A DNA stretch of 64,000 nt from Mustelus asterias. Its lineage: Eukaryota. The translations under genes were made by a program, and so were the position numbers. The notes beneath the pieces are model-generated. The model worked only from the letters and a program-made list of their open reading frames with translations. It searched no databases and was not told where the DNA came from. The first letter of the stretch is position 1. Each line of letters opens with the position of its first letter. The stretch is taken from contig NC_135812.1 of the NCBI RefSeq assembly GCF_964213995.1, positions 43,586,001 through 43,650,000 of the forward strand, written 5' to 3'. Positions 12,792-43,177 of this stretch are shown piece after piece.

Positions 12792-13109
12792 CTGTAAAGA
12801 AGATTGTGAAATAGGGAAATTAAATTAAATTGAGAACACACAGTAAAACACAGATTTATGATCACACAGCCAAAAAATATGAATCCTCCCCTTTAGAAGG
12901 CTTGTGCTTGTAATGTTTCACTCTGTAGACTGAGTAAAGATTTACTCCAGCACTATCCTTCACTAACTGGCTTTATGGAGCACAACAGTGCAGGGAATAC
13001 CGGATGCATCTGTAACAGGTAGACTGGTGGTTACAAGGTCAAATAGATTTTTCCCTCATGTTGGTCTTCTCACCACCTGTTGCAAGCCCAATCTGGTAGA
13101 TTTGTCCTT

Positions 13110-14210
13110 CAGGACTCAGCTTGATTAGTATATTAGAGGAGTTGGTCATTTGGCCCCTTAAGACTGTTCTGCCATTCAATAAGATCATAGCCCCATTTTC
13201 CTGCCTGTTCCTTTTAAACCTTGACTCCACTGTAGATCAAAAATCAGTCTAACTCAGCCTTGAATACATTCAATCTTAACTGTCTGTTGGGGGAGAGAAT
13301 TCTAAAGATCAATAAACCCCAAAGAAATTTCTCCTCGGATCTTTCTTAAACAGGAAATCCCTGATTTTGAAACTATGGCCCCTAGTTCTAGATTCCCTCA
13401 TGAGGGGAAACATCATTTCAGCAGGTACTCTGTCAACTATCCTCAGAATCTATATGTTTCAAGGAGATCACCCTCATTCTTCTAAACTCCACTGAATACA
13501 GGCCCATTTTTCATTAGACAACCCCTTTGTCCCAGGAATTAACTATCTCTGAACTGCCTTTAATGCAAGTATATCCATCCTTAAATAAGGAGACCAAAAC
13601 TGTACACACACTTATAGGTGTGGTCTCAGCAATGCCCTGTACAGCTGCAGCAAGACTTCCCTATGTTTACTCACCATCCCTTTTGCAATAAAGGCCAAAA
13701 TTCCATTTGCCTTCCGAATTACATGTTGTACCTGTGTGCCAATTTTGTGATTAGTGTACAAGGTCACCCAGATTCCTCTGTACAGCAACGGACCTGGGTT
13801 AGATTCCCAGCGTGGGTCAGATTCCCAGCTTGGGTCACTGTCTCTGCATGGGTTTCCTCCAGTTTCTTCCCACAGCCCGAAAGACTGGGAGGCCTGACAG
13901 CCCACAGCCCGAAAGATGTGCTGGTTAGGTGCATTAACCATGCTAAATTCTCCCTCAGTGTGCCCGAACAGATGCCAGACTAGGCAACTAGGGGATTTTC
14001 ACAGTAACTTCATTACAGTATTAATGTAAACCTACTTGGGACACTAATAAATAAACTTTAAAAAAAACTTTTCTGCAGTTGCTATTAATTTTTAACACAT
14101 GTTCTGCTTTTCTATTCTTTCTGCCAAAGTGGACAAACCTATTATATTCTTTGTCAAATGTTTGCCCATTCACAAAATACCTATATCCCTTAGTGCTGCC
14201 TTGCATTGGA
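13110..14210 (-). mobile_element. CR1 LINE 3' portion interrupted by a SINE (about 13785-14060, plus strand)
   Basis: Translations IRKANGILAFIAKG...VLLQLYRALLRPHL and VHFGRKNRKA. The SINE ends in AATAAATAAACTTT. Confidence 0.8.
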
Positions 14211-14289
14211 CACTGAGGTCCCTAGTACATTATGCACCAATGCTTTATTCCAAATGGTGTTCAACATGGAGAAGTACTAATTAATTAGA

Positions 14290-14700
14290 GGGTAGTAGGT
14301 GATAGTCAGCAGGAAATCTCCCTGTCCATGTTTGACAATGTCATGCGACTGTATGAGAAGAGTCACTCCCTCCAGACCGTATATAAATGTTCCATTATCT
14401 TTGGTGGGTCTGTCCTACAGGAAGCTGTCTGGGAAGTTGGCTGAAAGGTAGGATTCTGAATGACTACGTTGGACTGTTTCTTGACTCATCTGTGGGTTAT
14501 CACTTCCAAATTTAGCATCACGTGTTCGTGAGGAGTTTGCAGGGTTTGATTAGATTGTGTGCGCTTTTGTGTCAGTACCTCGGTTGATATCGGGTGGTTC
14601 ATTCAGTTTTAATCTTGTAGCTGTTTAACTCAACTGAGTAACTTGCTAGACCAATTCGGAGTGCAGTTCAGGGTCAACCATATTGTGGTGGGGCCACTAC
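14290..14700 (-). mobile_element. Degenerate LINE endonuclease-region fragment
   Basis: Decayed similarity to a shark LINE APE region (GACAGACCCACC...CAAACATGGACAGGGAGATTTCCTGCTGACTATCACCTAC on the minus strand); identified by recall only. Confidence 0.4.
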
Positions 14701-15869
14701 AAAATGACGTAACACACAAGTTAGTCATAACCTCCTTGGCCTTTCCAGGTCTATTCCAACAGCACTGTCAAATTTACACTGTTCCTTTTAGTTGCACAAA
14801 ACCTCATCCATCTCAAACCCTACGAACCAACTGCAGAAACACGTGCAATTCATTTTCTAATTGTCTAACATACAAAACAATTAAATGTCGCTGGACTATT
14901 CTGTGGTTGCAACAATCACCTTTGCATTCACAAGTTTCCTGTTATTCTTTCTGGCTTCCTGTGAAGGCCATGGTGTCAGTGTGCAGACAGCTGTAAAACC
15001 ATTCTGTATAATCTGGCCCACGTGTCTGTCAAATAATATTTTATCTATACTTCCGAGCAGCCCAACCCTATTGATATTCCAACAGTTTAAAAACCTTGCA
15101 CACAAAATAGGTTGGACATTCCTCAAAGCATTGGAAAATAAATCAGGAATAGTGATAACATTAAGTAGTGGCTGTTATTTTAGGTTAACATACAGTCCTT
15201 TCACCTCTCAGGCCGAGACAAATACAAAATGTCTCCTCTTTTTTTAGCTGCATATTGGTGCTACGTAAAGGCCTCCCAAACTGGTCCCATGTAGGGATTC
15301 CAAAGGACAACATGACCTATAATTCAGTACAAATTAGCTCTCATTTAAAAAGGTACAAGAGGGCTGACACTGAAGTTACACTTGGGCTCCCTGTCTAACA
15401 TTCAGATTGTCCTAAACCTAACAGGACATGCCTGATCCTGATGCTGGAAGTCAATGTGGGAGTGTTCCATTCTTTGGCACTATTATCTAATGACTCAAAA
15501 TTCATCCAGAAATGTCATGATTTGTCTAAAACCTCTCCTATTTGTATAGCATCATGGAATATTCTTTACTTTCAAGGCAGTACGTTATTCTTGCAGCTCC
15601 CAATGTAGTAGAGAATCTGACCTTCAGCTTCCTGAAATGGGACAGAGATCTGGTGCTTTCCCAGAAGGAAAGTTTGGGGAGAGTGGCAATGGTCTGGGAG
15701 CTGATCCCTACTAGAACCAGTGATGTCAGGACCCACTTTTTCACAGAAAGGAAAATCTGAAACTCTTCCCCCAAAAAGCTGCTGACACTAATTCAACTGA
15801 AAATCACAAAACTGACTGCTACTTTGTTTGTTGAGCAAAGAAATAAAGAATTATGAAACAAGGTGCGCT

Positions 15870-16674
15870 AGAGGAATGGACTTCAACCCAGATAAATGCG
15901 TAGTGGTCCATTTTGGCAGGTCAAATGGGATGAAGGAGTACAATATAAAGGGAAAGACTCTTAGTACTGTAGAGGATCAGAAGGACCTTGGGGTCTGGGG
16001 CCATAGGACTCTAAAATCGGCCCCGCAGGTGGAGGAGGTGGTTAAGAAGGCGTATGGTGTGCTGGCCTTTATCAATCGAGGGATTGAGTTTAGGAGTCCG
16101 GGGATAATGACGCAGCTATATAAGACCCTCGTCAGACCCCACTTGGAGTACTGTGCTCAGTTCTGGTCGCCTCACTATAGGAAGGATGTGGAAAAGATTG
16201 AAAGGGTGCAGAGGAGATTTACAAGGATGTTGCCTGGATTGAGTGGCATGCCTTATGAGGATAGGCTGAGGGAGCTCAGTCTTTTCTCCTTGGAGAGACG
16301 TAGGATGAGAGGAGATCTAATAGAGATATACAAGATGTTGAGAGGCATAGATCGGGTGGACTCTGAGGCTTTTTCCCAGGGTGGAAATGGCTGCTACGAG
16401 AGGACACAGGTTTAAGGTGCTGGGGGGTAGGTACAGGGGAAATGTTAGGGGGAAGTTTTTCACACAGAGGGTGGTGGGCGAGTGGAATCGGCTGCCGTCA
16501 GTGGTGGTGGAAGCAAACTCAATAGGGTCTTTTGAGAGACTCCTGGATGAGTACATGGGACTTAATAGGATGGAGGGTTATAGGTAGGCCTAAAAGGTAG
16601 GGATATGTTTGGCACAACTTGTGGGGCCGAAGGGCCTGTTTTGTGCTGTAGTTTTTCTATGTTCTATGTTTCTA
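15870..16674 (+). mobile_element. Young 5'-truncated CR1 LINE nested in an older CR1 3' end
   Basis: ORF FNPDKCVVVHFG...LVRPHLEYCAQFWSPHY...RRMRGDLIEIYK, followed by a (TTCTATG)n tail. Confidence 0.93.
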
Positions 16675-16927
16675 AAATATAGATCAATCGTCAAATTGAA
16701 TGGCAGAACTGGTTTTGAGAGACTGAAAGGCTCACCCCCGTTCCTTTGCAAATCAAACCATGGTTAAATAAGCATCCAAAATCAAAAGTAAAAACTTCAG
16801 ACTGTTTTAACAATTCTTACAATTGGTGGATTTTAAAAGGGATCTTAACTTGACATGACTCAGAAAAGAACTACAAAGAATCTTCAGATTCAAGACTAGA
16901 GCTGGAATACAGCACCACTTTTATATT

Positions 16928-17280
16928 GGGGGAGGTAATGACCCAGTGGTATTATTGCTGGACTATTAATCCAGAAACTCAGCTAATGTTCTGGGGACCT
17001 GAGTTCGAATCCCACCATAGCAGATGATGGAATTTGAATTCAATAAAATAAAAAATCTGGAATTAAGAATCTACTGATGACCATGAAACCATTGTTGGAA
17101 AAACCCACCTGGTTCACTAATGTCCTTTAGGGAAGGAAATCTGCTGTCCTTACCTGGTCTGGCCGACATGTGATTCCAGAGCTACAGCAATGTGGCTGAC
17201 TCTCAACTGGCCCCAAAGGAAAACTAGGCTTGAGCAATAAATGCTGGCCAGCCAGTGGCGCCATTGTCCCACAAATTAAT
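16928..17280 (+). mobile_element. tRNA-derived SINE sharing its 3' tail with the LINE family at 1-335
   Basis: Head CAGTGGTATTATTGCTGGACT...GAGTTCGAATCCCACC; tail GCAATAAATGCTGGCC. Confidence 0.7.
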
Positions 17281-18249
17281 TTTTAAAAATTAATGGTTTC
17301 ATTTATCCATTTTTACAGAAGTGGCTGTATAAGCCAGACTTCAGAACACATCTCACACCCACCTGCATTAACCAAAGCTGAGAGAGGTCTCTGAATAACA
17401 CATGGTTTAAGGACCTGATAGGTCAAAAACGCTAGTTCTTGAGTTCACAGTAGCTGTAGTTTAACTCTAAATAGCCCAGGTGGCCCACTGGATCCACTTG
17501 AAGCAGTGTGTGGGAGATCTTTCAAATCTGATACACTGGCATTACTGTTCTACTCACTTTGTTTATAGTATTTCTGAAGCCAGTACTAGAATGGCTCTGC
17601 ACAAATGATCAGTGTCTGTGTAATCATATCAATAACAAACCTGATCTCTGCGCATGATCATCATTTCAGGCAGCAAATTACCAACAGGCACTAAACCCTG
17701 ATCACAATTTCACTGACAAATGTCAATTTGAGCAATTCAAAAAGCACTAACAACCTATTCTGGAATATAAGACTACTTACTAAGAATTAGAAATCAGTGT
17801 TTGGTAGCTCTTTTTATATTTGCCCCCTCTTGGTGTTTATGGGAAATTAAGTGTATTATTTTGCAAAATTCTGGATCATCAGTATAACGTTGCAACAAAC
17901 TCCATCTGCACCTGAAGGAAATCAGGAACAGGAGCGAGCCTTTTAGCCTCTTGGGCTTCTCCACTTTTTCAAAGAGATTTTGGCTAAACTGTAGCCTAAC
18001 TCCAAATATCCTCCTGTACCCCAAATCCCTCAATACCACTGATAGATTCTTGTTAATCAATCTCAAATTTAAAAAAAGTTACAATTGGCCCAGCATCAAT
18101 TGCCATCTACAGGAGTGTTCTAAACTTGTACCACCCTGTGTGTGCAGAAGTGTTTCCTAATTTCACACCCAAAAGATCTGGCACTAAATTTTAGTAAGAG
18201 TTCTAACAACACCAGGTTAAAGTCCAACAGGTTTATTTGGTAGCAAATA

Positions 18250-18286
18250 CTATTAGCTTTCGGAGCCCTGCTCCTTCGTCAGATGG
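18250..18286 (-). ncRNA. Minimal type-I hammerhead ribozyme motif (one stem-I mismatch)
   Basis: Minus strand reads CCAT-CTGACGA-A-GGAGC agg GCTCC-GAAA-GC-TA-ATAG. Confidence 0.7.
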
Positions 18287-18352
18287 AGTGGATATCTGCT
18301 CAAACAGGGCATACAGAGACACAAAATCAAGTTACAGAATACTGATCAGAAT

Positions 18353-18853
18353 ACCACACAACCTCAAACAGACCACTGTCCGCAGCAAACTACCCAGCCT
18401 TCAGGAGAACAGTGACCACGACACCACACAACCCTGCCACAGCAACCTCTGCAAGACGTGCCGGTCATCGACACGGATGCCATCATCTCATGTGAGAACA
18501 CCATCTACCAGGTACACAGTACCTACTCTTGCAACTCGACCAACGTTGTCTACCTGATACGCTGCAGGAAAGGATGTCCCGAGGCATGGTACATTGGGGA
18601 AACCATGCAGACGCTACGACAACGGATGAATGAACACCGCTCGACAATCACCAGGCAAGACTGCTCTCTTCCTGTGGGGGAGCACTTCAGCGGTCATGGG
18701 CATTCAGCCTCTGATCTTCGGGTAAGCGTTCTCCAAGACTGCCTTCACGATACATGACAGCGCAGAGTCGCTGACCTGAAACTGATAGCCAAGTTCCGCA
18801 CACATGAGGACAGCCTAAACCGGGATCTTGGGTTTATGTCACACTATCAGTAA
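18353..18853 (+). pseudogene. PLE C-terminal GIY-YIG endonuclease (frameshifted, one internal stop)
   Basis: Cys-rich linker CHSNLCKTC, then NVVYLIRC...WYIGET...LRQRMNEHR...VGEHF...LNRD; TAA at 18851-18853. Confidence 0.88.
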
Positions 18854-19064
18854 CCCCCACAGCTTGCCTCCTGGATTTGCAGAATCTCACTGGCTGTCCT
18901 GTCTGGAGACAATACACATCTCTTTAACCTGTGCTTAATGCTCCCTCCACTCACATCGTCTGTATCTTTAAGACCTGGTTGGCTGTAGAGGTTCGCATTC
19001 TAATCTGTATTCTGTAACTTGATTTTGTGTCTCTGTATGCCCTGTTTGAGAGCAGATATCCACT

Positions 19065-19101
19065 CCATCTGATGAAGGAGCAGTGCTCCGAAAGCTAATG
19101 G
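19065..19101 (+). ncRNA. Minimal type-I hammerhead ribozyme motif (intact)
   Basis: CCAT-CTGATGA-A-GGAGC agt GCTCC-GAAA-GC-TA-ATGG. Stem I is CCAT/ATGG, stem II is 5 bp, and helix III is reduced to a palindrome. Confidence 0.82.
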
Positions 19102-19594
19102 CATTTGCTACCAAATAAACCTGTTGGACTTTAACCTGGTGTTGTTAAAACTCTTACTGTGTTTACCCCAGTCCAATGTCGGCATCTCCACATCATGACT
19201 AAATTTTAGACCATGCCTCTTAGTCCTTGCCTTTCCAACCAGCAGAAGTATTTTTCTCTGTCCACCCCATCAGTTCTCCTTAATACCTTGAAGATTTTGA
19301 CCAAACTCATGAGTGTAAAATGAATGTTTTAACTTTAATTTGCCGCAGATCCTAATTATTTCCCACCATCTCCCACAGCTCGATTTCAGAACAGTTTCAT
19401 AAATTGGCTTTTCAACATTCAATTTTTGCTGGAAACGTGATGTCACTAAGCACAGAAAACAAAGGGAATTTATACCTACTCAAATGGAGCAATACTGTTT
19501 TGTATTATTACAGTGGCGCCAAAGACCTTCTGCCAAATGGATTGCTATGAATTTCTTTCATCGCCAATCCACGGCACCCTGTATCTATCTGCTT

Positions 19595-19789
19595 GATGTG
19601 GAGATGCCGGCGTTGGACTGGGGGTAAGCACAGTAAGAAGTCTCACAACACCAGGTTAAAGTCCAACAGGTTTATTTGGTAGCAAATACCATAAGCTTTC
19701 GGAGCAAGGGGCAGCGCTCCGAAAGCTTATGGTATTTGCTACCAAATAAACCTGTTGGACTTTAACCTGGTGTTGTGAGACTTCTTACT
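19595..19789 (-). mobile_element. Short non-coding PLE fold-back element (family A)
   Basis: About 75-bp near-perfect inverted arms plus the family-A tail; flanking duplication CTATCTGCTT; hammerhead core truncated in both arms. Confidence 0.85.
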
Positions 19790-20754
19790 CTATCTGCTTG
19801 TTGCAGAGAGCACTGCTAGGTTTTGCTCAGTTCACAACTGGACTGGCCACATTTAAAACCAGTTTGTAGACACAGAACAGATCTGCACATATCCGTACAA
19901 TTTTGTAGTTTTGAAATGTAATTGCAAAATGAAATTTTGGTTTTCCAGTCTCAAAATTGCTGCTGGCTATCCCTTAATTTAGACTTTTGTTATTCCAACT
20001 GTTTCGCAGGCTAGACAGAAAAGTTCATTTTGTTTCATTTTAGGGTTAAAATTGGATGCTTAATTGAAAGAAATTTGGTCAAGTAAAAAATTAAGAATAA
20101 ATTTTTTAAAAATCAAGAACGGGTTTTGAATATCCATCACCTCCTCCAACCAACACCACCACCCCCTCTCTAAGGCCCTATTTGCCCTCCCTCAGTGGTC
20201 GGCTCTGACTGTTGTACCCCTACTGCTCTCCATTGCCCTTCCCCAGCACTTCTCCCTTCCACTGCTCAACATCACTGCTGACTCCTCCTTATCTCACACC
20301 TCCTCCCTTCTCCTCCCACCCCACCCCCACGTTGGATTCATTACCTCACATCCTCTAACCTCAAAAGTTTAAATTGATCTTGATTGCTTGTAGGAGATTT
20401 TGTAAGTTGTGAACATTCATATAGCATATGTCTCAGAAAAGTACTTTGCATGTACGCACACAATGAGTTGCAGACTAATGTTAAGTGGGTGGATGTGTGG
20501 GTGCCTGTGGCAACGATGATGCACAAACAGCAATTAAATTATTGAAAGTTGTACTATATTTGGTGGTGTTTGAGGGGGGGGGGGGGGTGGAATATAGGTC
20601 AGGATTATTTTTAAATTCATCCTTGAGATGTGAGCATCATGAGTAAGGCCAGCATTTATTGCCCATCCTTAGTTGCCATTGAGACGACAATGGTGGGCAC
20701 TTCTTGAACCACTGCGGTCCATGTGTTGTAAGAACACCCACATTGCAGTGCTGT

Positions 20755-21945
20755 TAGAAGCATAGAAACTAGGAGCAAGTGTAGGCCATTCGGCCTTCAA
20801 ACTTGCTCCAACATTGAACACAACAATGACTGATCCTCTATCTCAACGCCATATTCCTGCTTTCTCCCCATACTTCGTGATGCCACTAAACTCGAAAAAA
20901 AACTTCTTGAATAAATTCAGTGACTTGACCTCCACAGCCTTCTGTGTTAGAGAATTCAACAGATTCATTACCCTTTTGAGTGAAGAAATGTTTCCTCATC
21001 TCAAGTGGTCTATCCCGTATCCTGAGACTGTATCCCCTGGTTCTACATTCCCCAACCAGGAAAAACATTCTCCCTGCATCTAGGTTGTTCAGCCCTGTCA
21101 GAATTTTATATGTTTCAATCAGATCTCCTCTCATTCTTTAAACTCTACCGAATATAGGCCCAGAAGAGTCCCACCAACTCCAGTATCAGCTTAGTGAACC
21201 TGCGCTGCACTCCCTCTATGGCAAGTATATTCTTCTGAGGTAAGGAGACCAAACCTGCATGCAATACTCCAGGTGTGGTATTACCAAAGCCCAGTACAGC
21301 TGCAGTAAGATATCCCTTCTTCTGAACTCGAATCCTCGAGCAATGAAGACCAGCATATCATGAGCCTTCATAATTGCTTGCTGCACCTATCGCTCCACTT
21401 TCATTGACTAGTGTAAAAGGACACCCAGATCCCTTTATACATCCACACTTCCCTATATATCACCATTTAAATAATACTCTTCCTTTCTGTTATTTACACC
21501 AAAGTGTATAACTTCACATTCAGCCACATTGTACTACATCAGCAATGTGTTTGCCCACTCAACTTGTCTAAATCAACTTGAAGTTTCCTTGCATCCTCCT
21601 CACAACTCCACCCAGTTTGGTGTCACCAGCAAACCTGGAAATGTTACATTTGGTTCCCTCATCCAGATTAGTTATACAATATATCTATATACATTGTAAG
21701 TAGCCGGGCTCAAGTGTTACCCCACTCTGTTTCCTGTTGGTTAATCAATTCTTAATCTATGCCAATACATCACCCCCTATACCTCTTATGGAGGAACCTT
21801 ATCAAAACTCAAAAGTCCAAATACACCACATCCACTGGTTCTCCCTTATTGATTTTATTCATTACATCTTCAAAAAGCTCCAGTAGATTTCTTTCATAAA
21901 CCCATGCTGGCTTTGTCCAACCCCGCTAATGCTTTCCAAATGTTC
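20755..21945 (-). mobile_element. 5'-truncated CR1 LINE nested in a LINE 3' fragment
   Basis: Translations MRGDLIETYKIL...RTRGYSLRIR and SQHGFMK; the host repeat continues at 20617-20755 and 21950-22395. Confidence 0.85.
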
Positions 21946-23616
21946 TGTAATGGGAGAGAATTCCAGGATTTTGACCCAACGACAGCGAAGAAACAATGAT
22001 CTAATTCCTAGTCTGGATGGTATGTGGCTAGAAGGAAACTTGCAGGTAGTGGTGTTCCCATGCATCTGCTGCCCTTGTCCTTCTAGCTGGTAGAGGTTGT
22101 AGGTTTGGAAGATGCTATCGAATGAGCCTTGGCAAGTTGCTGCAGTGCATCTTGTAAATGTTATGCACTGCAGCCACTGTATGTTGGTGGTAAAGAGAAT
22201 GAATATTTAATATGTTGGATGGGGCGCCAATCAAGCAGGACATGTGTCTTCGAAGGTGTCAAGCTTCGAGTATTGTTAGAGCTGTACTCATCTAGGCAAG
22301 TCACATTCCTGACTTGTGCCTTGTAGATGGTGGAATGGCTTTGGGGAGCCAGGAGGTGGGTTACACAGTGTAGAATTCCCAGCCTTTAACCAGCTCTCAT
22401 CATCTCAACAATCTGAAGGGGGTCACTCATTAGTGTGCCAGCTTTAACTTGTGCTGAGGTCCTGGTGTAAGGCTCAAATCCACAACCTTCTACTCACTTA
22501 TACAAGATCCTTCAATCATTTCGCAAACAATGAACATGTCGTGCAGTGCAGCAAACTGGATCACAAGACACATTCCAATCTTGTGTCAAAAGTGTACTTG
22601 TGTAGAGCCATATGGTACTAAATTTATTTCAGCTGCAGAAAATCTCAAGTCAACAGTATTACATTATTTGTACATTCCAATGCTAATTCATGACACAATT
22701 GCATAGAAATAATTTTGGAGTTGGGTACTGGTATCTGTACCTTGTCTCTATTTCACAATACTGGTGTTTAATCATAAACACGTAGCTACAGGCAATAATA
22801 GTGCCTTAGTAATATAAAATAAAAGGTAGCGCTGCTGATATGAATGTCTTGGCTGCAGGGTAAACATAACATCAAACTGCAAGAGTCCTGAATAAGGGCA
22901 TTACAGCCAAATTTCTTTCCTGTGTTGTTTCACCAGCATTTCCCATCTTTATTTCAGATTTTCAGCATGTTAGACAAAACTTAATTTTGGGAAATGGGAG
23001 CATACATTTTGGAAAAAATATTGAAGGAAGTATTTCCCTTTAATAGCGAAAAAAAAGAGATCTAGGAGTTCCGAAATATTAAATGTGACATGAATTTGCA
23101 TTGCATCTTTATCACAGGGTAACATTCCAAGATTCGCAAAAATGTCTTGGAAGGGTACTCCAGAGATAGAAGCAAGGTTGCTAACGGCTTACACCAACGA
23201 AGAAATGAAGGGAAGAGAGAGTGTACACAGAAGCGCAGAAGAAAGGAATACTCAATAGGGATTTATAGGACCGGAACAACCTGTGGAAGCAGGGGTAGGG
23301 AAGATTGTGGAAGTATTTATAGACAGTGACAAGGATTTTAAATATACTGAAAAGAACAAAAGCAAGGTGATAATGTCCACCTCCACAAAATCATTATTTA
23401 AACATCAGTTGCAATACTGCTTCCAATTTAGGATTGCCCACTTTAGCAAGGGAAACAGGGCCACAGACTGAAGGGCAGAAAAGAATTTTTAAGATAATAA
23501 GGATTAGAAACAAAAACCCATGGAATAAAAGTGACTTTGCATGGATTCAAAGTTGGCCGAGTGACAGGAAACAGCAGAGCATGGTGCATGTGCAGAGCAT
23601 GGGAATCTGATTGAGG

Positions 23617-23916
23617 TGGCACAGTGGTTAGCACTGCTGCCTCACAGCCAGGGACCCAGGTTCAATGCCAGCCTCGGGTCACTGTCTGTGTGGTGTTTGC
23701 ACTTTCTCCGAGTCTGCATGGGATTCCTCCGGGTGCTCCGGTTTCCTCCCACAGTCCAAAGATGTGCGCGTTAGGTTAATTGGCCATGCTAAATTGACTC
23801 TTGTGTCAGGCGATTTGCAGGGTAAGTGTGTGGGATTACAGGAACAGGGCCTGGGTGAGATTGTGTTGGTACAGACTCAATGGGCCGAATGGCCTCCTTC
23901 TGTACTGTAGGGATTC
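23617..23916 (+). mobile_element. HE1-like SINE
   Basis: Complete head, core and tail. Confidence 0.9.
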
Positions 23917-25582
23917 TGTGGTGAACGGTTGTTTTTTGGATTGGAAGATGATAAACAGTGGGATTCCCCCAGAGGTTGGTCTAAGTAAGGATCACTGCTT
24001 TTCTTGATCTATATTAATAATCTAGATGTGTGGGGGGCAGGGCAAGATTTCAATCAGCAGATGAAACAAAACTTACAAGTATTTTGAACTGTGAAGGGGA
24101 TAGTAATAGATTCCAAGAAGATAAAGGCAGGTTGGTGGAATAGGTTAACATGTGGCAGATTAATTTTAAGGCAGAGAAAGTGTGAAGCGATATATTTTGA
24201 TAGCAGGAACAAGAAAATGTAATGTAAAATAAAAGGTACAATTTTAAATTCGTGCAAGAGCAGAGGGACTTGGTAGTGTATGCACACAAACCACTGAAGG
24301 TGGCAGGGCAGGTTAGAATAGAATAGAATCCCTACAGTGCAGGAGACCATTCGGCCCATCATGCCTGCACCGACCACAATCCCATCCAGACCTTATCCCT
24401 GTAACCCCACGTATTTACCCTGCTAATCCCCCTGACACTAGGGACAATTTAGCTTGGCCAATCAACCTAACCCGCACATCTTTAGACTGTGGGAGGAAAC
24501 TGGAGCACTCGGAGGAAACCCACGCAGACACAGGGAGAAAATGCAGACTCCACACAGACAGTGACCCGAGGCCAGAATTGAACCCGGGTCCCTGGCGCTG
24601 TGAGGCAGCAGTGCTAATCTTTGCTGGCCCATGATCTTTCTCTCAGAAAGTTCCCACAGTAAATTTATTCCTCAGCAGCAGTGAAAGGGAAGTGGGGGTT
24701 GCTGGCTCCATCCACAAGGTTAAGTGGCTTTCCCAGCAGCACTCAGGAGCCAGGAACTGGAGCCTCCTCTCTGCCAATCACCATTTTTCTCCACGCCATA
24801 GGTGACTATCACCCCTTGTCCCACAATAGCCTCTCTCGCCATGTCCCGATTGCAGTCAACCTTCCCTTCTCATCCCCACAACTGCAGCAGTGAGCCGGCC
24901 TTTTATCCCACCCGCCCAACAAGCTGCCTCCTGTTGTTGAAAAAGCAATTAACAAGGCAGACAGGATTCTGATCTTTATAACTGGAAGCACAGATTACAA
25001 AATCAAGGAAGTTATGATTACCCTTTATAAGACACTGGTTCTGCCTCAATTGGAGTATTGCGTTCAATTCAGGGTGCCAAACTTTACAAGGATGTGAAGC
25101 CATTGCAGAAGGTGCAGAAAGATTTACAAGAATAATTCCAAAAATTAGACACCTTAGTTCAGTGAACAGATTGACAAAGCTGAGGCAATTCTCCTTAGAA
25201 AAGATTTGGATTGAGGTATTCAAAACCATGACAGGTCCGTTCAGAGTAGATAGTGAGACAATGTTCCTATTGGCAGAAGAGTTGAGGACAAGATGACAAT
25301 TAATTAAGGTGACTAGCAAAAGAACCAAACGTGACATGAGGGAAAACTTTATTATGCAGAGTGTGGTTAGGATCTGGAATGGATTGCCTGAGAATTTGAT
25401 TGAGATAGGTTCAATCGTGGTTTTCTAAAGGGAATTGGATTTTCATCCAAAGAGAAAGATTTGTAGGGCTGTGGAGAAAAGGCAGGCAAGTGGGACTAGG
25501 CAAGTTACTCTTATAGAGAACCAGCACAGACAAGTGGGGCTGAATAGCTTCCTCCTGTGCAGCAACCATTCAATTATTCTAT
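23917..25582 (+). mobile_element. Degenerate CR1 RT/3' region interrupted by an HE1-like SINE (about 24320-24620, minus) and other sequence
   Basis: Decayed NSGIP..G / YINNLD / ADETKL motifs; YKTLVLPQLEYCVQF; CR1 3' UTR. Confidence 0.7.
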
Positions 25583-26214
25583 GAAATTGGTTAAAAGGAG
25601 GTTGGATGGAAATCAAAATTGACAAATCAGGAGGTATTATCACTGGTGGATCAGTAATGAGGGGGGCCATAAAATGAACGGTAATTAGCAAAAGAACAAA
25701 AGGAGAAGTTAGGATTGCTTTCTTTTTAAAAAAAATAGGGCCTGGTCGGACATGAAATGCCCTAAAGACAGCTTGATCCTAGATGTTGGAATATGACCAA
25801 TTTCAGGCTCTGAAATTACCCCATTACCCAATACTTCTACAAATGTGGCGAGTCATATTGGTTTGTGGGACAATTCCATGGAGCCCAAAATAGCTGCCTT
25901 TCAGTCTCCAGCATGAGCACACTTATGTTGGGAACGCAAGTACCATACTATTTCAAAAATTACCAAAGGAGCTTCATTCCAGTGGTGAGATGAGAATGAC
26001 TGCCCTTGAAATCAAGGCAACATTTGACTGAGTGTGACATCAAGGAGCATTCAGCTAAGAAGAGAGGCTGGGTTTGTTTTCCTTGGAGCAGAGAAGGCTG
26101 AGGGGGACCTGGTTGAGGTGTACAAAATTATGAGGGACAATAATAGGGTAGATAGGAAGAAGCATTTCCCCTTCATAAGGGGGGGGAAAGGCTTGCAACG
26201 GGATCTTGATCATT

Positions 26215-26487
26215 TGCCCCATCGAGGCTGCACCAACAACAATCCCACCCAAACCCTATCCCCATAACCCCACATTTACCCTGCTTATCCCCCTGACAAA
26301 ATGGGGCAATTTAGCATGGCCAATCAACCTAACCCGCACAATTTTGAAGTGTGGAAGGAAACCGGAGCACCCAGAGGAAACCCACGGATACATGGGGACA
26401 ATGTGCAATCTCCACACAGACAGTGACCCGACGCTGGAATCAAACCTGGGTCCCTGGCACTGTGCTAACCACTATGCCACCGTCCCG
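26215..26487 (-). mobile_element. HE1-like SINE
   Basis: Reverse-complement SINE core. Confidence 0.85.
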
Positions 26488-26570
26488 TCCCACTAAATGT
26501 AACTAAAAGTGCTATTGTCAACAGACCGATCTTGTCAATTAAACAGGTGGAAAGGTTCCTCAAAGAACTC

Positions 26571-27822
26571 AAATTTGATTGAGTTTTTTGAAGGGGTAAC
26601 CAAGAAGGTAGATGAGGGCAGTGCAGTTGATGTTGTCTACATGGACTTTAGCAAGGCCTTTGACAAGATACCGCATGGTAGGTTGTTGCATAAGATGAAA
26701 TCTCACGGGATCCAGGGTGAGGTAGCTAAATGGATACAAAATTGGCTTCTTGACAGAAGCCAGAGGGTGGTTGTAAAGAATTGTTTTTCAAACTGGAGGC
26801 CTGTGACCAGCGGTGTGCCTCAGGGATCAGTGCTGGGTCCACTCTTATTTGTCATTTATATTAATGATTTGGATGAGGATATAGGAGGCATGGTTCGTAA
26901 GTTTGCAGATGACACTAAGATTGGTGGAATACCGGACAGTGAAGAAAGTTATCTCCAATTGCAACGGGATCTTGATCAATTGGGCCAGTGGGCTGACGAA
27001 CAGCAGATAGAGTTTAATTTAGACAAATGCAAGGTGATGCATTTTGGTAGATTGAACCACGGCAGGACTTACTCAGTTAATGGTAGGGCGTGGGGAGAGT
27101 TACAGAACAAAGAGATCTAGGGGTACATGTTCATAGCTCCTTAAAAGTGGAGTCACACGTGGACAGAGTGGTGAAGAAGGCATTTGGCATGCTTGGTTTC
27201 ATCGGTCAGAACATTGAATACAGGAGTTGGAATGTCTTGTTGAAGTTGTACAAGACATTGGTAAGGCCACACTTGGAATACTGTGTGCAATTCTGGTCGC
27301 CCTATTATAGAAAAGATATTATTAAACTAGAAAGAGTGCAGAAAAGATTTACCAGGATGCTACCGGGACTTGATGAATTGAGTCATAAGGAGAGGCTGGA
27401 TAGACTGGGACTTTTTTCTCTGGAGCGTAGGAGGCTGAGGGGTGATCTTATAGAGGTCTATAAAATAATGAGGGGCACAGATCAGCTAGATAGTCAATAT
27501 CTTTCCCCAAAGGTAGGGGAGTCTAAAACTAGAGGGCATAGGTTTGTGAGAGGGGAGAGATACAAAAGTGTCCAGAGAGCAATTTTTTCTCACACAGGGT
27601 GGTGAGTGTCTGGAACAAGCTGCCAGAGGTAGTAGTAGAGGCGGGTACAATTTTGTCTTTTAAAAAGCATTTAGATAGTTACATGGGTACGATGGGTATA
27701 GAAGGATATGGGCCAAATGCGGGCAATTGGGATTAGCTTAGGGGTTTTAAAAAATAAAGGGCGGCATGGACAAGTTGGGCCAAAGGGCCTGTTTCCTTGC
27801 TGTAAACCTCTATGGCTCTATG
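26571..27822 (+). mobile_element. Young 5'-truncated CR1 LINE (RT and C-terminus)
   Basis: YMDFSKAFDK, GVPQGSVLGPLLFVIYINDL and FADDTK motifs; frameshifts; CTCTATGG repeat tail. Confidence 0.95.
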
Positions 27823-28774
27823 ATAACTAGAATTAAAATAACATTCAGTTGATGTAAAAAAGCCAATATAAAAGGGAGGCAAACTAAGATAACTGTGCTT
27901 TTTTCCTCATCTACCTAGAGACAGCCTGCTTATTCAGTCTGAGGTTGCCTTCTTTTGCTTTTTGGTTCAATGGGTAAGCCCAATTATTCCCTCCACACCT
28001 TCCCAATTCCAATATTGAGATAAAGCTGCAGAAAAAAAAACTAAACTTGAAATTTGCTGTTTTGAATCAACACAATTGCTTTGCCCGTTTGCTCCAGGGA
28101 CCACTCAGCTTTCTCGACAGCCAGCTTTGAAACGGAACACACCTTCAATTGTCTGGTCATGCACAGTGAACCGAACAAAGTTCCACTGGGGAGGAGGTAA
28201 TGGCAGTACATCTTGACTCCACTTAGCTTTATACTTTGCAAAGAGAGCTTTATGAAAACACATCTTTACTTCAAGTGTTTGAATAATTCCTTCATATCAT
28301 TTTGCTTATTACAGATCTAACGTTAGAAAGCACGTTTTTCCTCAGTCGATATCACTTGCTTCTTTTCAGACTTGAAAAATCCCTGGAAAATCAAAATCCG
28401 CATCATGTTGCTACGTCAGATTTCCACAGCACCGCACAATTTTGGAATAAGAAAACCCAAATGCACAGAGCACTGACAACCTAACTCCCTGTTGCACCCA
28501 TTGGAAATGAGTGAATACAGTGCTCCAAATACGGAAAGAGGGCTCAAAAGGTAAATCTGACAAATATATATCTGAATCAAAAGGGCATCAAAATAGCTAC
28601 AAGAAGAAATGACTAGTCTCTTAAATCTGTTAAGTTTTATTTTAAGATAAAATTGTGAGAGTGCATTTGTTTAGGTGGCCCAGAGGAACTGTGGTGCTCC
28701 GGGGAGACCGTGAACCTCCAAGGTGATAAAACAGTGGTGTTTAGTTTCTATTTTTGACATAAGAAACCAGCTAG

Positions 28775-29050
28775 TTTAAAGTTTATTTATTAGTGTCACA
28801 TGGAGGCTTGCATTAACACTGCAATAAAGTTACTGTGAAAATCCCTTCGTCGTCATGCTCCGGCACCTGTTCGGGTGCACCGAGGGAGAATTTAGCATGG
28901 CCAATACATCTAACTAGCACGTCTTTCAGACTGTAGGAGGAAAGTGGGGCACCTGGAGGAAACCCATGCAAACACGGGGAGAATGTGCAGACTCCACAGT
29001 GACCCAAGCAAGAAGTGAACAGATCCCTGGTGCTGTGAGGCAGCAGTGTG
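28775..29050 (-). mobile_element. SINE (HE1-related head, AATAAATAAACTTT tail subtype)
   Basis: Same subtype as the copy at 13785-14060; it accounts for the spurious C-terminal half of ORF 28813-29679. Confidence 0.8.
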
Positions 29051-29258
29051 CCAAACAAAATACATATTTTTTGGGATTGAAAACAGAAATCAGCAAAGTA
29101 ATGTGAGGGAGGAAGAAAGGAATCAAATATTTTAAAGCAGATTTGCAGCTGGAGTAAATATTTAGTTGTAATGGACAATAAAGAGTAGACACAATGGCAG
29201 AAGTTTGAATTTTCATGGATAGCATTGATGCCAGCTGTGGCTGAGTGCCTGGCCTTAC

Positions 29259-30419: not shown

Positions 30420-30916
30420 GCAGCACAGTGGCACAGTTGCTCAACTCCTCACTCACCTGAAGAAGGAGCCTGAGACTCCGAAAGCTTGTGCTGCCAAATA
30501 AACCTGTTGGACTTTAACCTGGTGTTGTGAGATTTCTTACTGTGCTTACCCCAGTCCAACGCGGGCATCTCCACATCATGGCCTCACAGCGCCAGGGACC
30601 CAGGTTCAATTCCCGGCTTGGGTCACTGTGTGTGTGGAGTTTACGCAGTAAGAGTTTTAACAACACTGTGTGTTGTTACATTGTGTGGAGTTTGCACATT
30701 CTTCCCATGTCTGCGTGAGTTTCCTCTGGGTGCTCTGGTTTCCTCCCACAGTTCAAAGATGTGCAGTTTAGGTTGGTTATACTAAATTGCCCCTTAGTGT
30801 CAGGGGGACTAGCTAGGTTAAATACAAAGGGTTATGGGGATAGGGTCTGGGTGGGATTGTGCTCGGTGTAGACTCAATGGGCCAAATGGGCTCCTTCTGC
30901 ACTGTAGGGATTCTAT
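30420..30916 (+). mobile_element. HE1-like SINE carrying two PLE family-A insertions
   Basis: The SINE head is split by a PLE terminus (about 30440-30578) and by a micro-insertion at about 30647-30682. Confidence 0.8.
30454..30490 (+). ncRNA. Minimal type-I hammerhead ribozyme motif (family A variant)
   Basis: CAC-CTGAAGA-A-GGAG cctgaga CTCC-GAAA-GC-TT-GTG. Stem I is CAC/GTG, covarying relative to the CCAT/ATGG copies. Confidence 0.75.
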
Positions 30917-32569: not shown

Positions 32570-32755
32570 CAGTAAGGAGTCCCACAACACCAGGTTAAAG
32601 TCCAAAAGGTTTATTTGATAGCACGAGCTTTCAGAGCGCTGCCCCTTCATCACTCACCTGAAAGCTCTTGCTACCAAATAAACCTGTTGGACTTTAACCT
32701 GGTATTGAGACTCCTTACTGTGCTTACCCCAGTCCAATGCCGGCATCTCCACATC
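32570..32755 (+). mobile_element. Short PLE fold-back element (family A, older)
   Basis: Inverted arms CAGTAAG...GCTTTC and GAAAGC...CTTACTG plus tail TGCTTACCCCAGTCCAATGCCGGCATCTCCACATC. Confidence 0.82.
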
Positions 32756-33020: not shown

Positions 33021-34294
33021 CACTTGGAACTTTTTGATTGATCTAATCTGAAACAAAATCAACTAATGGCTACGAATGGAGCTTTGAAGAAATAACATTC
33101 AGCAGAGACACCTGGGAGGCCACAACCCATAACTAAAAGCAAACACAGCAGTGGAATGCAGTGACTGCAGAGACCCAAATCAATATTGGAAATGTATATG
33201 TGTCGGAGGCTAAGATCAGGACATCAGAATAGCAGAGTGAGGGGGAAGTATGGAAAATCGGGCTCCTATGGCCCTGGAACGTGGAAGAATAAAAGCAGCC
33301 AGACCATGTGTACTGTATACTGATAGGGGCTTCCCAACCCAAGTAACAGCGCATACCTTTCCCATTCCCTATTGCTCGAGTGTATCCATTCAACATTGTC
33401 AACATGTGCTGTGGAAAAGAAAATGTAAGAGGTGTGTATGGTCTAAAGTTGTTAAAGTTAATGTTAAGATCAGAAAGCTATTAAAGTGCGTAAATAAATT
33501 TTTAAAACTGACATTTATATGATGCCTTTCACAACCACTGGACATCTCAAAGTGCTTTAGAGCCAATGGAGTATTTTTGAAATGTAGTCTGTTTAACATA
33601 GTTTTATTTCTGATTAACAATAACGTATAGAGTTATGGGGACAGTGAGTGTAAAAGGCATTGAAATGTCCAATCAGCAATGATCATATTGAATGGTGCAG
33701 CAGCCTTGACATGTTGAATGGGCTACTCCTGTTCCTATGTTATACCTAAGGAACATGGCAGCCAATGGCGCACAGCAAATCCCTTCTTGCAGCAATTTGA
33801 TAATAATCAGATAATCTGTTGTTGTGACGTTGATTGAAGGATAAATAAATATTAGTTAGGATATTGGGATAATTCCCCTGCTCTTCTTTGAAACAGTGCT
33901 ATGAGATTGTTCCAGAGGAGCAGCTAGAGTGGTGGTTCAAGTGAGGAGGGCTAGTAGGTAAGAGGTATTTTTAACTTACACTTTTTTTCGGAGTTTTTTT
34001 TTCTCTAAGGCAGCCGCGAGTGTAAAACTGGAAGTAGGCCCCAGTGAATTTTTTGAGTCGGAGCAATGGAGGCAGCGAGTGGAATGCGAGACTGCGCAGG
34101 CGCCTGACGTCAGCCAGTAGCGCACGGAAGGTTTAAAAAGCAGGCTGCTCTATCCAGCGGGCAGCGTTGTGAGCGGGCCGCATTGTGAGAGGGAGCAGAG
34201 TGGGACGGCTTTGGCTCAAACAGGCTTTGGCGTGAACAGGCAGAGGCGAGGGTAGGTTCCGGTAAGTTGTTTTTGTTTCTTCAGAGTAGAAAGA

Positions 34295-35229
34295 ATGATA
34301 GGCAGGATGTTGGAATGCTTCTCTTGCAGGATGTGGGAAGTCAAGGAGACCTCCGGTGTTCCTGACAACGACACCTGCAGGAGGTGCATCCAGCTGCAGC
34401 TCCTAACAAACCGCGTTAGGGAACTGGAGCAGGAGCTGGATGACCTCCGGATCATTCGGGAGAATGAGGAGTTTATAGATAGTAGCTTCAGGGAGGCAGT
34501 TACGCCAAAGGCACAGAGCACAGGTAATTGGGTTACCGTCAAGCGAGGGAAAGGGACAGGGCAGGCAGAGCAGGGTTCCCTGTGGCCATTCCCCTCCACA
34601 ACAGGTATACCGATTTGGATACTGTTGTGGGGGATGCCTTACCTGCGGCAAGCTGTGGCAGCCGAATCTCTGGCACTGAGTCTGGTTCTGCAGCGCAGAA
34701 GGGAGGGTGGAAGAAGAGGAGAGCGGTAGTGATAGGGGACTCAATAGTCAGAGGTACAGACAGGAGGTTCTGTGGTCATGACAGAGACTCCCGGATGGTT
34801 TGTTGCCTCCTGGGTGCTCGGGTCAGGGATGTCTCTGTTCGCGTGCACAGCATTCTGAAGTGGGAGGGTGATCAGCCAGATGTCATGGTACACATCGGTA
34901 CCAATGACGTAGGAAGGAAGAGTGAGGAGGTCCTGAAGAGTGAGTATAAAGAGCTTGGTAGGAAGTTAAAAAGCAGGACCCCGAGGGTAGTAATCTCAGG
35001 ATTGCTACCTGTGCCATGTGCCAGTGAGGGTAAGAGTAGGATGCTCGGGCGGATGAACATGTGGCTGAGGAACTGGTGTAAGGGGCAGGGTTTCAGATTT
35101 CCAAATCATTGGGACCTCTTCTGGGGCAGGTGGGACCTGTACAAGAGAAACGGGTTACACCTGAACTACAAGAGGACCAATATACTTGCAGGGAGGTTTG
35201 CTAGTGTTATTGGGGAGGGTTTAAACTAG
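34295..35229 (+). pseudogene. CR1 ORF1: zinc-finger/coiled-coil plus SGNH esterase (one frameshift near 34550-34600)
   Basis: CFSCRMW...CRRC, LTNRVRELEQELDDLR coiled coil; VIGDSIVR, HIGTND and GLHLN esterase blocks. Confidence 0.88.
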
Positions 35230-37152
35230 ATTTGCAGGGGGATGGGAACCAGAGTGCCAGAGCAGATAGTGGAGCGGGGGGGGTGAAAATAAATGTTAGT
35301 AGTTCATGCAAAATCACAAATAGAAGGGTTGTGTGTGGTGGTAATAATCTTCTCAGGTGTGTCTATTTCAATGCCATGAGTATTATGGGGAAAAGAGACG
35401 AGCTGAGGGCGTGGATTGACACATGGAATTATGACATTATAGCCATTAGTGAAACTTGGCTACAGGAGGGGCAGGACTGGCAGCTCAATGTTCCAGGGTT
35501 CCGATGTTTCAGACGTGATAGAGGCAGAGGGATGAAGGATGGGGGGTGGCATTGGTAGTCAGGGAAAGTGTTACAGCAGTGCTCAGGCAGGACAGATTAG
35601 TGGGCTTGTCTACCGAGGCCATATGGGTGGAGCTGAGAAACAGGATAGGTATGACCACATTAATGGGGGTGTATTATAGACCACCCAATAGTCAGCGAGA
35701 ATTGGAGGAACAAATCTGCAGAGAGATAGCAGACAACTGCAGGAAACATAAAGTTGTGATAGTAGGGGATTTTAATTTTCCACATATAGATTGGGACTCC
35801 CATACTGTTAAAGCTCTAGACGGGTTAGAGTTTGTAAAATGTGTTCAGGAAAAGTTTCTAAATCAATATATAGAGGTACCAACTAGAGAGGATGCAATAT
35901 TAAATCTCCTATTAGGAAACGAGTTAGGACAAGTGGCGGAAGCGTGTGTAGGGGAACACTTTGGTTCCAGTGATCATAACGCCATTAGTTTCAACTTGAT
36001 AATGGATAAAGATAGATCTGGTCCTCGGGTTGAGGTTCTAAACTGGAAAAAGGCCAAATTTGAAGAAATGAGAAAGGATCTAAAAAGCGTGGATTGGGAC
36101 AGGCTGTGATTGGTAAGTGGGAGGCCTTCAAAGGAGAAATTTTGAGAGTGCAGAGTTTGTATGTTCCTGTCAGGATTAAAGGCAAAGTGAATAAGAATAA
36201 GGAACCTTAGTTCTCGAGGGATATTGGAACTCTGATAAAGAAGAGAGAGATGTATGACATTTATAGGCAACAGGGAGCAAATAAGATGCTTGAGGAGTAT
36301 AAAAAGTGCAAGAAACTACTTAAGAAAGAAATCAGGAGGGCTAGAAGAAGACATGAGGTTGCTTTGGCAGACAAGGTGAAGGATAATCCTAAGAGCTTCT
36401 ACAGGTATATTAAGAGCAAAAGGATAGTAAGGGATAAAATTGGTCCTCTTGAAGATCAGAGTGGTCGGCTATGTATGGAACCAAAAGAAATGGGGGAGAT
36501 ATTAAATGGGTTTTTTGCATCCGTATTTACTAAGGAAACTGGCATGGAGTCTATGGAAATAAGGCAAACAAGTAGGGAGGTCATGGAACCAAACAGATTA
36601 AAGGGGAGGAGGTGCTTCCTGTCTTGAGGCAAATCAGAGAAGATAAATCCCCAGGACCGGACAGGGTATTCCCTCGGACCTTGAAGGAGACTAGTGTTGA
36701 AATTGCAGGGGCCCTGGCAGATATATTTAAAATGTCGGTATCCACGGGTGAGGTGCCGGATGATTGGAGGATAGCTCATGTTGTTCCGTTGTTTAAAAAA
36801 GGCTCAAAAAGTAATGTGGGAAATTATAGGCCGGTAAGTTTGACGTCAGTAGTAGGTAAATTATTGGAAGGAGTACTAAGAGATAGGATCCACAAATATT
36901 TGGATAGACAGGGACTTATTAGGGAGAGTCAACATGGCTTTGTGCGTGGTAGGTCATGTTTAACCAATCTATTAGAGTTTTTCGAGGAGGTTACCAGGAA
37001 AGTGGATGAAGGGAAGGCAGTGGATATTGTCTACATGGACTTCAGTAAGGCCTTTGACAAGGTCCTGCATGGGAGGTTAGTTGGGAAGGTTCAGTCGCTA
37101 GGTATACATGGGGAGGTAGTAAATTGGATTAGACATTGGCTCAATGGAAGAA

Positions 37153-37374
37153 CAGTAAGAAGTCTCACAACACCAGGTTAAAGTCCAACAGGTTTATTTG
37201 GTAGCAAATACCATAAGCTTTCGGAGCACAGCTCCTTCGTCAGATGGAGTGACGAAGGAGCTGTGCTCCAAATGCTTATGGTATTTGCTACCAAATAAAC
37301 CTGTTGGACTTTAACCTGGTGTTGTGAGACTTCTTACTGTGCTTACCCCAGTCCAACGCCGGCATCTCCACATC
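37153..37374 (+). mobile_element. Short PLE fold-back element (family A) inserted in CR1 ORF2
   Basis: About 90-bp inverted arms plus tail; target duplication (TC)AATGGAAGAA at 37141-37152 and 37373-37384. The CR1 frame WLNGR|SQRVVV resumes after it. Confidence 0.92.
37211..37247 (-). ncRNA. Minimal type-I hammerhead ribozyme motif (intact)
   Basis: Minus strand reads CCAT-CTGACGA-A-GGAGC tgt GCTCC-GAAA-GC-TT-ATGG, with palindrome AAGCTT. Confidence 0.82.
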
Positions 37375-42979: not shown

Positions 42980-43177
42980 CTGTTTCTTGCGTCCAGACTG
43001 CGAGGGCTTCCACTCGTCGCTATCCATTAGGTTCACCAGTTCTGTTTCCTCCTCTTCATTCACAAAATTGTCTGATAAAAATACTCCAGGAAATGGGAAA
43101 GTCCAGCCACTTAAACTAGAGGAGTCATTCGCTACTGCCAAGCCCGATGTGGGATGATAAATGAAGTGATACTTTCT
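42980..43177 (-). CDS. ALKBH4: ALKBH4 exon 2
   Basis: RKYHFIYHPTSGLAV...GWTFPFPGVFL..FVNEEEETELVNLMD..WKPSQSGRKKQ; 198 nt, phase 0/0, AG/GT borders. Confidence 0.93.

Follow-up and report, generated by a model that had tools for sequence, protein, structure and literature searches.

A truncated, probably Neptune-type Penelope-like element with hammerhead motifs in its inverted arms, located in an intron of shark DTX2

Introduction

What kind of sequence places hammerhead ribozyme motifs on both strands of a vertebrate intron, and do these motifs do anything where they lie? Minimal hammerheads are present by the thousand in the repeats of Penelope-like elements (PLEs) in fish, coelacanth and frog genomes, and the repeats of shark PLEs are probably catalogued in Repbase and Dfam. 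For the 64-kb stretch of shark DNA analyzed here (hereafter, the window), an initial annotation had proposed a PLE at 18193-19197 whose terminal repeats carry minimal hammerheads on both strands, one of them sense to the pre-mRNA of DTX2. Here, we ask what this element is, how its inverted ends may have been formed, and whether its hammerheads are likely to matter for the gene that hosts them.

Results

Anatomy of the element and its target

The insertion is flanked by a perfect 12-bp target-site duplication, absent from the initial annotation, with a left copy at 18183-18194 (83% A+T) and an exactly matching right copy at 19198-19209, which sets the bounds of the element to 18195-19197. The right end thus agrees with the one annotated initially, while the left end moves inward from 18193, since the first 2 nt of the arm (18193-18194) are common to the arm and the target duplication. 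The element landed in the 3′ portion of an older LINE: both flanks of the element match an uninterrupted paralogous LINE stretch at 53729-53899, where they overlap by 6 nt, and the same four residues are found on both sides of the element in the host reading frame.

From left to right, the element consists of an inverted partial pLTR arm without the tail (18195-18352, minus strand), which ends at a proximal site (the equivalent of 19156-19158); the 5′-truncation point and the RT-EN linker, with a zinc-finger-like C-x4-C-x2-C motif of the Neptune/Nematis type (18353-18466, plus strand); a GIY-YIG endonuclease remnant with a CCHH motif (18467-18854, plus strand); the 3′ UTR and direct pLTR (18855-19158, plus strand); and a 39-nt “tail” (19159-19197, plus strand) that is present on the direct arm only. 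Over 162 nt, the two arms (18193-18352 and 18997-19158), which are inverted repeats, show 94.4% identity, and the alignment of the inverted arm with 18997-19156 contains 7 substitutions and one 2-nt indel. Between the arms, the coding stretch is split over two frames by a frameshift near 18465 and interrupted by one premature TGA (18755-18757) upstream of the natural stop (18852-18854). The 18195-19197 interval therefore displays the pLTR, the optional inverted 5′ arm, the one-sided tail, and the target-site duplication that characterize EN+ PLEs.

The coding remnant and its relatives

The remnant between the arms is indeed of the GIY-YIG type, as had been noted initially: it matches Pfam PF01541 with an E value of 2e-4, slightly below the gathering score, and is 87-89% identical to full-length shark PLE proteins (Mustelus asterias). 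Its core, VVYLI...CRKGC...WYIGET, is followed by two His residues downstream, in agreement with the C-terminal GIY-YIG/CCHH endonuclease of EN+ PLEs, and the position of the conserved Glu, as set by alignment to the relative P0002, appears to be occupied by Asp. The linker (18354-18464, frame +3) shares 35 of its 37 residues with P0002 residues 234-270, and its C-x4-C-x2-C motif is of the CX2-5CxxC kind found in the Neptune clade and common to Nematis. In a search for further relatives, 38 of the 64 candidate proteins matched at E ≤ 1e-10, the best of them from Mustelus, Scyliorhinus, and Heptranchias. Eight relatives were fetched and six of these scanned; four of the eight (P0007, P0012, P0033, and P0038) carry RVT_1 upstream in the same chain, and the DKG motif is present in three RVT_1 relatives, those whose sequence extends that far. 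The RT itself is absent from 18195-19197, given that a tblastn search with the 643-amino-acid RT+EN protein P0007 matches the window by residues 473-642 only. A PDB search with P0007 returned nothing significant (best E value of 0.49).

Two other identities were tried and rejected: a group I homing endonuclease is ruled out by the 87-89% identity to shark PLE proteins, and a DNA transposon or MITE by the asymmetric ends together with the PLE endonuclease. Stray copies were also looked for in bacterial and archaeal genomes, with 0 loci found. The assignment to PLEs is thus borne out by the inverted arm, the linker and GIY-YIG domain, the pLTR, the tail, and the duplication, and by the RT of the shark relatives. 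Regarding the clade, the zinc-finger motif in the linker marks Neptune or Nematis and not Penelope/Poseidon, according to the part of PMC8557442 that covers it, and Neptune and Poseidon alone are described as found in vertebrates in the portion of a recent preprint considered here (10.64898/2026.07.22.740005). Since only Neptune satisfies both observations, it is the likely clade, with the linker motif and the host group as the only characters used for the assignment. Taken together, 18195-19197 is very probably a dead, 5′-truncated, Neptune-type PLE insertion in a carcharhiniform shark, in an account that also comprises the mechanism of insertion proposed below.

One intact and one degraded hammerhead

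On the plus strand, antisense to DTX2, the sequence at 19065-19101 is predicted to form an intact minimal type-I hammerhead, and its initial description is accurate in both sequence and parse. A 4-bp stem I is followed by CUGAUGA, a single additional A, and a 5-bp stem II capped by a 3-nt loop; after GAAA-GC-U-A, the 3′ strand of stem I completes the motif, and the cut is predicted between 19097 and 19098. Positions 15.1-16.1 form the loopless palindrome AGCU in place of helix III, so that this helix is unable to close within one molecule; this is the layout to be expected if, as had been proposed, the terminal repeats carry minimal type-I hammerheads that need a partner through a palindromic helix III. 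The motif also fits the consensus CUGANGAH G...C GAAAN-palindrome-NUH published in Fig. S3 of PMC4209133.

The minus-strand copy at 18250-18286, sense to DTX2, had been taken for the same motif, which it no longer is. Its core (CUGACGA...GAAA, where CUGACGA is an allowed variant) and its 5-bp stem II are intact, but stem I contains a C-A mismatch, and in the folding model the stem I pair probabilities amount to 0.01-0.10, versus 0.95-1.0 in the plus-strand copy. Hence, a closed helix I of 4 bp is found in 19065-19101 and not in 18250-18286, while CUGANGA plus H, G10.1-C11.1, GAAA, the palindromic 15.2/16.2, and UH are present in both arms.

It could be argued that the resemblance to a hammerhead is fortuitous, or that the motif is a relic, noncatalytic even in active master copies. 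We consider this quite unlikely. A strict descriptor (stem II of at least 5 bp, no loop 3, and stem I of at least 4 bp) retrieves 2 sites in the 64-kb window versus 1 site in total over 200 dinucleotide shuffles, and it does so where PLEs are known to carry the motif; with a relaxed descriptor, 5 sites are found in the window versus a shuffle mean of 0.195. The bare core pattern is at chance level, with 3 matches in the window versus a mean of 2.22 over 100 shuffles. Among the four copies with complete cores, variation is confined to N7, loop II, N17, and stem I, with one compensatory change in stem I (U-A to C-G), and position 17 is A, U, or C, never G, in all nine arms that reach it. The covariation in these four copies (33 of 36 cells paired, with 1 compensatory change) is not significant, as 116 of 500 shuffles score as high, and this lends some weight to the chance reading. 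So do the folding z-scores, where three of the four 61-nt contexts give no signal (the motif has no folding advantage in its own 61-nt context, with a z-score of −0.28) and the fourth owes its z-score of −3.0 to a fold-back junction rather than to the ribozyme, and the anole PLE, whose ribozyme mutants left insertion in vitro unaffected (PMC11167929). The same reading could draw on Rfam, which returned 0 matches, and thus no hammerhead, over the whole window at the gathering score and 8 matches, none of them to a hammerhead, over 18100-19900 at E ≤ 10. The strict type-I descriptor is matched at this locus and the Rfam hammerhead families are not; hammerheads that lack helix III would be expected to escape the Rfam models.

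Related insertions in the window

Five further insertions carry the arm (19596-19788, 30453-30580, 30647-30682, 32571-32755, and 37153-37375), and the six insertions together occupy 1771 bases, or 2.8% of the window. The nearest one, 19596-19788 (minus strand), lies in the same DTX2 intron and is a short fold-back of a second subfamily, with its tail at the left, a 12-bp duplication, and no complete hammerhead core; its hairpin is matched by Rfam miRNA models far below their gathering scores, which reflects shape only. Inserted in a SINE, 30453-30580 (plus strand) is a solo pLTR plus tail of a third subfamily, without an inverted arm, and contains a complete minimal hammerhead whose 3-bp stem I harbors the compensatory change mentioned above. 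The tiny insertion at 30647-30682 (minus strand) consists of a 20-nt arm of the main element’s subtype with its own duplication of ∼11 nt. Two further fold-backs are found at 32571-32755 (plus strand), a member of the third subfamily whose hammerhead cores have been truncated or lost and whose duplication is degenerate, and, in the RT frame of a LINE, at 37153-37375 (plus strand; second subfamily, 12-bp duplication), where the minus strand bears a complete minimal hammerhead (37211-37247). Over the six insertions, the exact duplication is 12 nt long in three, 11 nt in one, and 6 nt in two (30453 and 32571).

Judged by their sequences, the window insertions belong to three subfamilies. Over the shared 3′ stretch (∼67 nt), the main element differs from the arms of 19596 and 37153 by 5-7 substitutions, its own two arms are 3 substitutions apart, and the 19596 and 37153 fold-backs have four arms between them, with 0-1 mutual differences; the 30453 and 32571 copies are set apart by a 7-nt indel. 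Moreover, turn points are copy specific, with different junctions in all four longer fold-backs. Because there are three subfamilies and each fold-back has its own turn point, the main element is best described as a sister copy and not as the parent of the fold-backs. The initial annotation had regarded it as their coding parent lineage, of which the kinship remains and the parenthood does not, given in addition the lack of an RT, the frameshift, and the stop.

The short fold-backs appear to have been inserted independently, as short copies of several related masters. Alternatively, they could represent a separate nonautonomous family, MITE-like or retrozyme-like, that is derived from and mobilized by the lineage of the element and amplifies as a unit. 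The pLTR and tail that the fold-backs have in common and the near identity of the 19596 and 37153 arms would suit such a family, and there are precedents both for PLE-derived nonautonomous retrozymes, one chondrichthyan case included (in the portion of 10.64898/2026.07.22.740005 considered here), and for trans mobilization via pLTRs (in that of PMC3846280). We nevertheless find it improbable. Amplification as a unit sits poorly with four different junctions in four longer fold-backs and with three subfamilies, among which the subtype of the main element is limited to the 20-nt arm at 30647; the head-to-tail tandem units of retrozymes were not seen in the window, where copies are dispersed or inverted; and near-perfect arm identity suggests that the hairpins were made at insertion.

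Regular arm ends and a possible route of insertion

The ends of the arms are regular across copies. All five inverted arms have their outer end at the proximal site (the equivalent of 19156-19160) and all five direct arms at a distal site (the equivalent of 19194-19197). The difference between the two sites corresponds to a tail of ∼36-39 nt, which only one side carries. The inner starts cluster as well, with 7 of the 10 arms having theirs at positions equivalent to 19060-19085, 13-38 nt upstream of the ribozyme cut; of the remainder, two begin farther upstream (18997 and 18353) and one downstream (19139). Not one of the 10 arms starts at the predicted ribozyme cut, though a 61-nt probe beginning there detects all of them. 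The copies run through the ribozyme site, suggesting that both templates were uncut at this position. At their junctions, the short copies have microhomologies of 1-3 nt.

These end points can be accommodated by a route with two primers. An RT-EN protein from an intact master copy elsewhere would have cut both strands of the AT-rich target, ∼12 nt apart. One target 3′ end would then have primed cDNA synthesis at the distal site, yielding the tail, the pLTR, and the EN region until synthesis stopped at 18353, while the other target 3′ end would have primed at the proximal site of another pLTR, yielding the 158-nt inverted arm, after which the two cDNAs would have been joined. The same pLTR would thus have been copied twice, which would incidentally have placed hammerheads on opposite strands, and the short fold-backs could stem from an event of this kind in which both cDNAs stopped early, with templates from related subfamilies. 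With six insertions to go by, we put the chances of this two-primer route at about even. It has to contend with the finding that start sites are the same on both strands in vitro (PMC11167929), as opposed to the different sites at the two ends here, with the missing inverted arm of the 30453 copy, and with the exact duplications of only 6 nt at 30453 and 32571.

Its main rival derives the inverted arm from a single cDNA that switched templates or snapped back as a hairpin, or else from a DNA rearrangement that took place later. The microhomology at the junctions of the short copies would agree with such an origin, and the mechanism of PLE inversion is termed undefined in the part of PMC8557442 that deals with it. 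With snap-back, however, the arm should begin at the turn point and be symmetric around it, whereas the main element contains 640 nt of unique spacer, and its outer ends are fixed and asymmetric with a tail on one side; furthermore, the perfect duplication implies that the structure was formed in one event. We therefore regard this origin as rather doubtful and the two-primer route as the better candidate.

Extending the two-primer route, it is conceivable that the shark insertions record how inverted PLE ends are formed, namely, from uncut RNA primed by both strands, with the proximal site giving rise to the inverted arm and the distal site to the tailed arm. As part of the same model, the clustered inner stops within or just before the 5′ half of the ribozyme might correspond to the transcript start or to stalling at the ribozyme fold. 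We put forward both proposals tentatively and with less confidence than the route itself. No statement of this two-primer, uncut-RNA model was found in the literature searched, where PMC11167929 and the portion of PMC8557442 covered here come close.

The hammerheads in their host intron

The host intron (12792-29258, minus strand, GT-AG) lies between the first two coding exons of DTX2, the WWE exons, which join in frame. The second WWE exon is 100% identical to Mustelus asterias DTX2, and with the protein start at 29583, this is the first coding intron. The body of the element is antisense to the gene, so that the damaged minus-strand motif alone is sense. The location in a DTX2 intron and the sense orientation of this motif, both part of the initial annotation, are thereby upheld; the relevance for DTX2 pre-mRNA that they implied is not, since stem I is broken, an intact sense partner is missing, and the antisense arm comes first.

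In the folding model, 34 of the 37 ribozyme bases on the minus strand and 36 of the 37 on the plus strand are paired with the opposite arm, at a mean probability of at least 0.995, and the inter-arm duplex amounts to −59.5 kcal/mol versus about −4.5 kcal/mol for the helix III palindrome. In either read-through transcript, the antisense arm would come first and then pair with the ribozyme. Both hammerheads are thus probably inert in place, as passengers. The model is one of equilibrium folding, and processes such as ADAR editing, splicing, or protein binding might separate the two arms. The 158-bp intronic duplex might in turn be a substrate for RNA editing. A weak descriptor match without stem I is present at 13446 in the same intron.

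With the DTX2-sense stem I broken and the motif paired with the antisense arm, cleavage of the host pre-mRNA, and hence an effect on DTX2 by this route, is unlikely. In its strongest form, the opposing proposal would be an exapted intronic ribozyme, in which the minus-strand hammerhead cuts or regulates DTX2 pre-mRNA. The motif is intronic and DTX2 sense, its core and stem II are intact, and intronic hammerheads of human genes are presented in a review (PMC6155905, in part). Against this, helix III is missing in addition to the broken stem I, no other complete sense core with stem I passes the descriptor within 12792-29258, the antisense arm lies earlier in the transcript, and the insertion is a decaying repeat copy in which no constraint is visible, making exaptation extremely improbable.

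Discussion

The element at 18195-19197 is an ordinary example of a described kind of PLE, and the presence of hammerheads on both strands follows from the usual inverted arm. A shark Neptune-type PLE with hammerheads was not found described in the literature searched, with the qualification that the supplementary tables of the preprint 10.64898/2026.07.22.740005 could list the family; PLEs as such are abundant in shark introns (10.1101/443036, in the part considered). The locus thus adds a shark Neptune-type example and is of little weight as a discovery. It does provide useful material on two points, the origin of the inverted and tailed PLE ends and the question of whether the ribozyme cleaves RNA destined for insertion, and the regularity of the ends across copies is the part most worth pursuing. 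If our model of end formation is correct, a family this dense would offer thousands of events in one genome as a test, and the layout of these insertions would silence their own ribozymes through antisense pairing.

With respect to its hammerheads, the element resembles what is known from other metazoan PLEs. The minimal type-I hammerheads of pLTRs show no activity as monomers and weak activity as dimers that form through an AGCU or ACGU palindrome. The portions of PMC4209133 covered here report that the single minimal motif of Schistosoma showed no cleavage, whereas dimers cleaved weakly, and that the minimal motif occurs in the Xena, Poseidon, and Neptune PLEs of fishes. The shark motif shares with these the short helix I, the extra base between positions 9 and 10.1, G10.1-C11.1, the loopless palindrome at 15.2-16.2, and the location in the pLTR. 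Dual motifs on opposite strands, 100-700 bp apart, were published in the same paper in 2014, and the legend to its Fig. S4A concerns a 5′-truncated PLE whose 5′ end carries another copy of the motif, on the opposite strand; in contrast to these, ∼790 bp lie between the shark cores, and stem I is broken in one of them. Cartilaginous fish do not appear in the covered portions of its Table S1 and Fig. S3.

The architecture likewise follows that of Neptune-clade EN+ PLEs (PMC8557442 and PMC3846280, in the parts considered), with a C-terminal GIY-YIG/CCHH endonuclease, a CX2-5CxxC linker, a DKG RT in the relatives, 5′ truncation, an inverted pLTR, a 30- to 40-nt tail at one end, and a target duplication. 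Inverted pLTRs, one-sided tails, and duplications of 8-10 bp have been described for PLEs in the same sources. Two differences concern the target: duplications reach up to 12 bp in the shark insertions, versus 8-10 bp in rotifer Penelope copies, and the shark targets are AT-leaning sites in older LINEs and SINEs and not microsatellites, unlike in the Neptune-clade comparison. The animal non-LTR retrozymes (10.64898/2026.07.22.740005, in the portion considered) also have type-I hammerheads of PLE pLTR origin and occur in one chondrichthyan, but they form head-to-tail tandem arrays, while the shark copies are dispersed and inverted.

An experimental parallel is PAc, the Poseidon element of the anole (Frangieh et al. 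2024, PMC11167929), whose protein cuts and extends both target strands, prefers AT-rich DNA, and initiates RT at two sites within the RNA, which mark the limits of the tail; the ribozyme of this PLE cleaves only when the protein is added and is dispensable for insertion in vitro. PAc differs from the shark element in that Poseidon lacks the linker zinc finger, while the shark element has the linker motif, and in that the same start sites are used on both strands in vitro, while the two ends of the shark insertions correspond to different sites. In both systems, however, the hammerhead lies upstream of two fixed end points that bound the tail, the target is AT-rich, and the copies extend across the position of the ribozyme cut, in line with an uncut RNA template.

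Insertion sites and neighboring genes

Older repeats host at least four of the six related insertions in the window, namely the four that we examined (18183, 30453, 30647, and 37153). The insertion at 18183, the main Penelope-like element, lies in the 3′ part of a LINE, and the fold-back at 37153 interrupts the reverse transcriptase (RT) frame of a near full-length LINE at 34256-38154 (+), presumably CR1-like, whose ORF1, endonuclease, and RT frames are fragmented. The insertions at 30453 and 30647 share one SINE copy, 67 bp apart; the latter (30647-30682) is tiny, consisting of a single 20-nt arm that belongs to the same subtype as the main element and is flanked by its own duplication. Upstream of DTX2, exons of an AlkB-family demethylase, which we take to be ALKBH4, occupy 40877-43261 (−) (PDB match, E = 1e-36).

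The DTX2 intron also contains, 390 bp away from the main element, a hairpin (19596-19788) whose stem pairs perfectly over about 80 bases. Its miRNA-model scores reflect shape only, and it is possibly a substrate for editing or a source of double-stranded RNA. We also observed pieces of the main element's endonuclease in annotated shark isoforms of unrelated genes, among them septin, XRCC5, and USP8 (proteins P0011, P0015, P0017, P0019, P0021, P0023, P0034, P0035, and P0037), reflecting either exonization or gene-model error.

Fixed ends and arm starts

Around the two fixed ends at which the arms stop, the folding model predicts a long stem-loop in two subfamilies (37295-37375, −18.8 kcal/mol; 30500-30582, −21.2 kcal/mol) and a weaker one in the main element (−10.0 kcal/mol). 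This predicted structure is possibly the counterpart of the stem-loop at which the anole RT initiates. Three arms start at a CACTC motif located just upstream of the ribozyme core (region 19060-19066; equivalents 37245-37251, 30448-30456, and 32650-32658). The motif resembles the consensus of an initiator element, and it may mark the transcript start; the sequence TCACT has been noted in a rotifer pLTR (PMC3846280).
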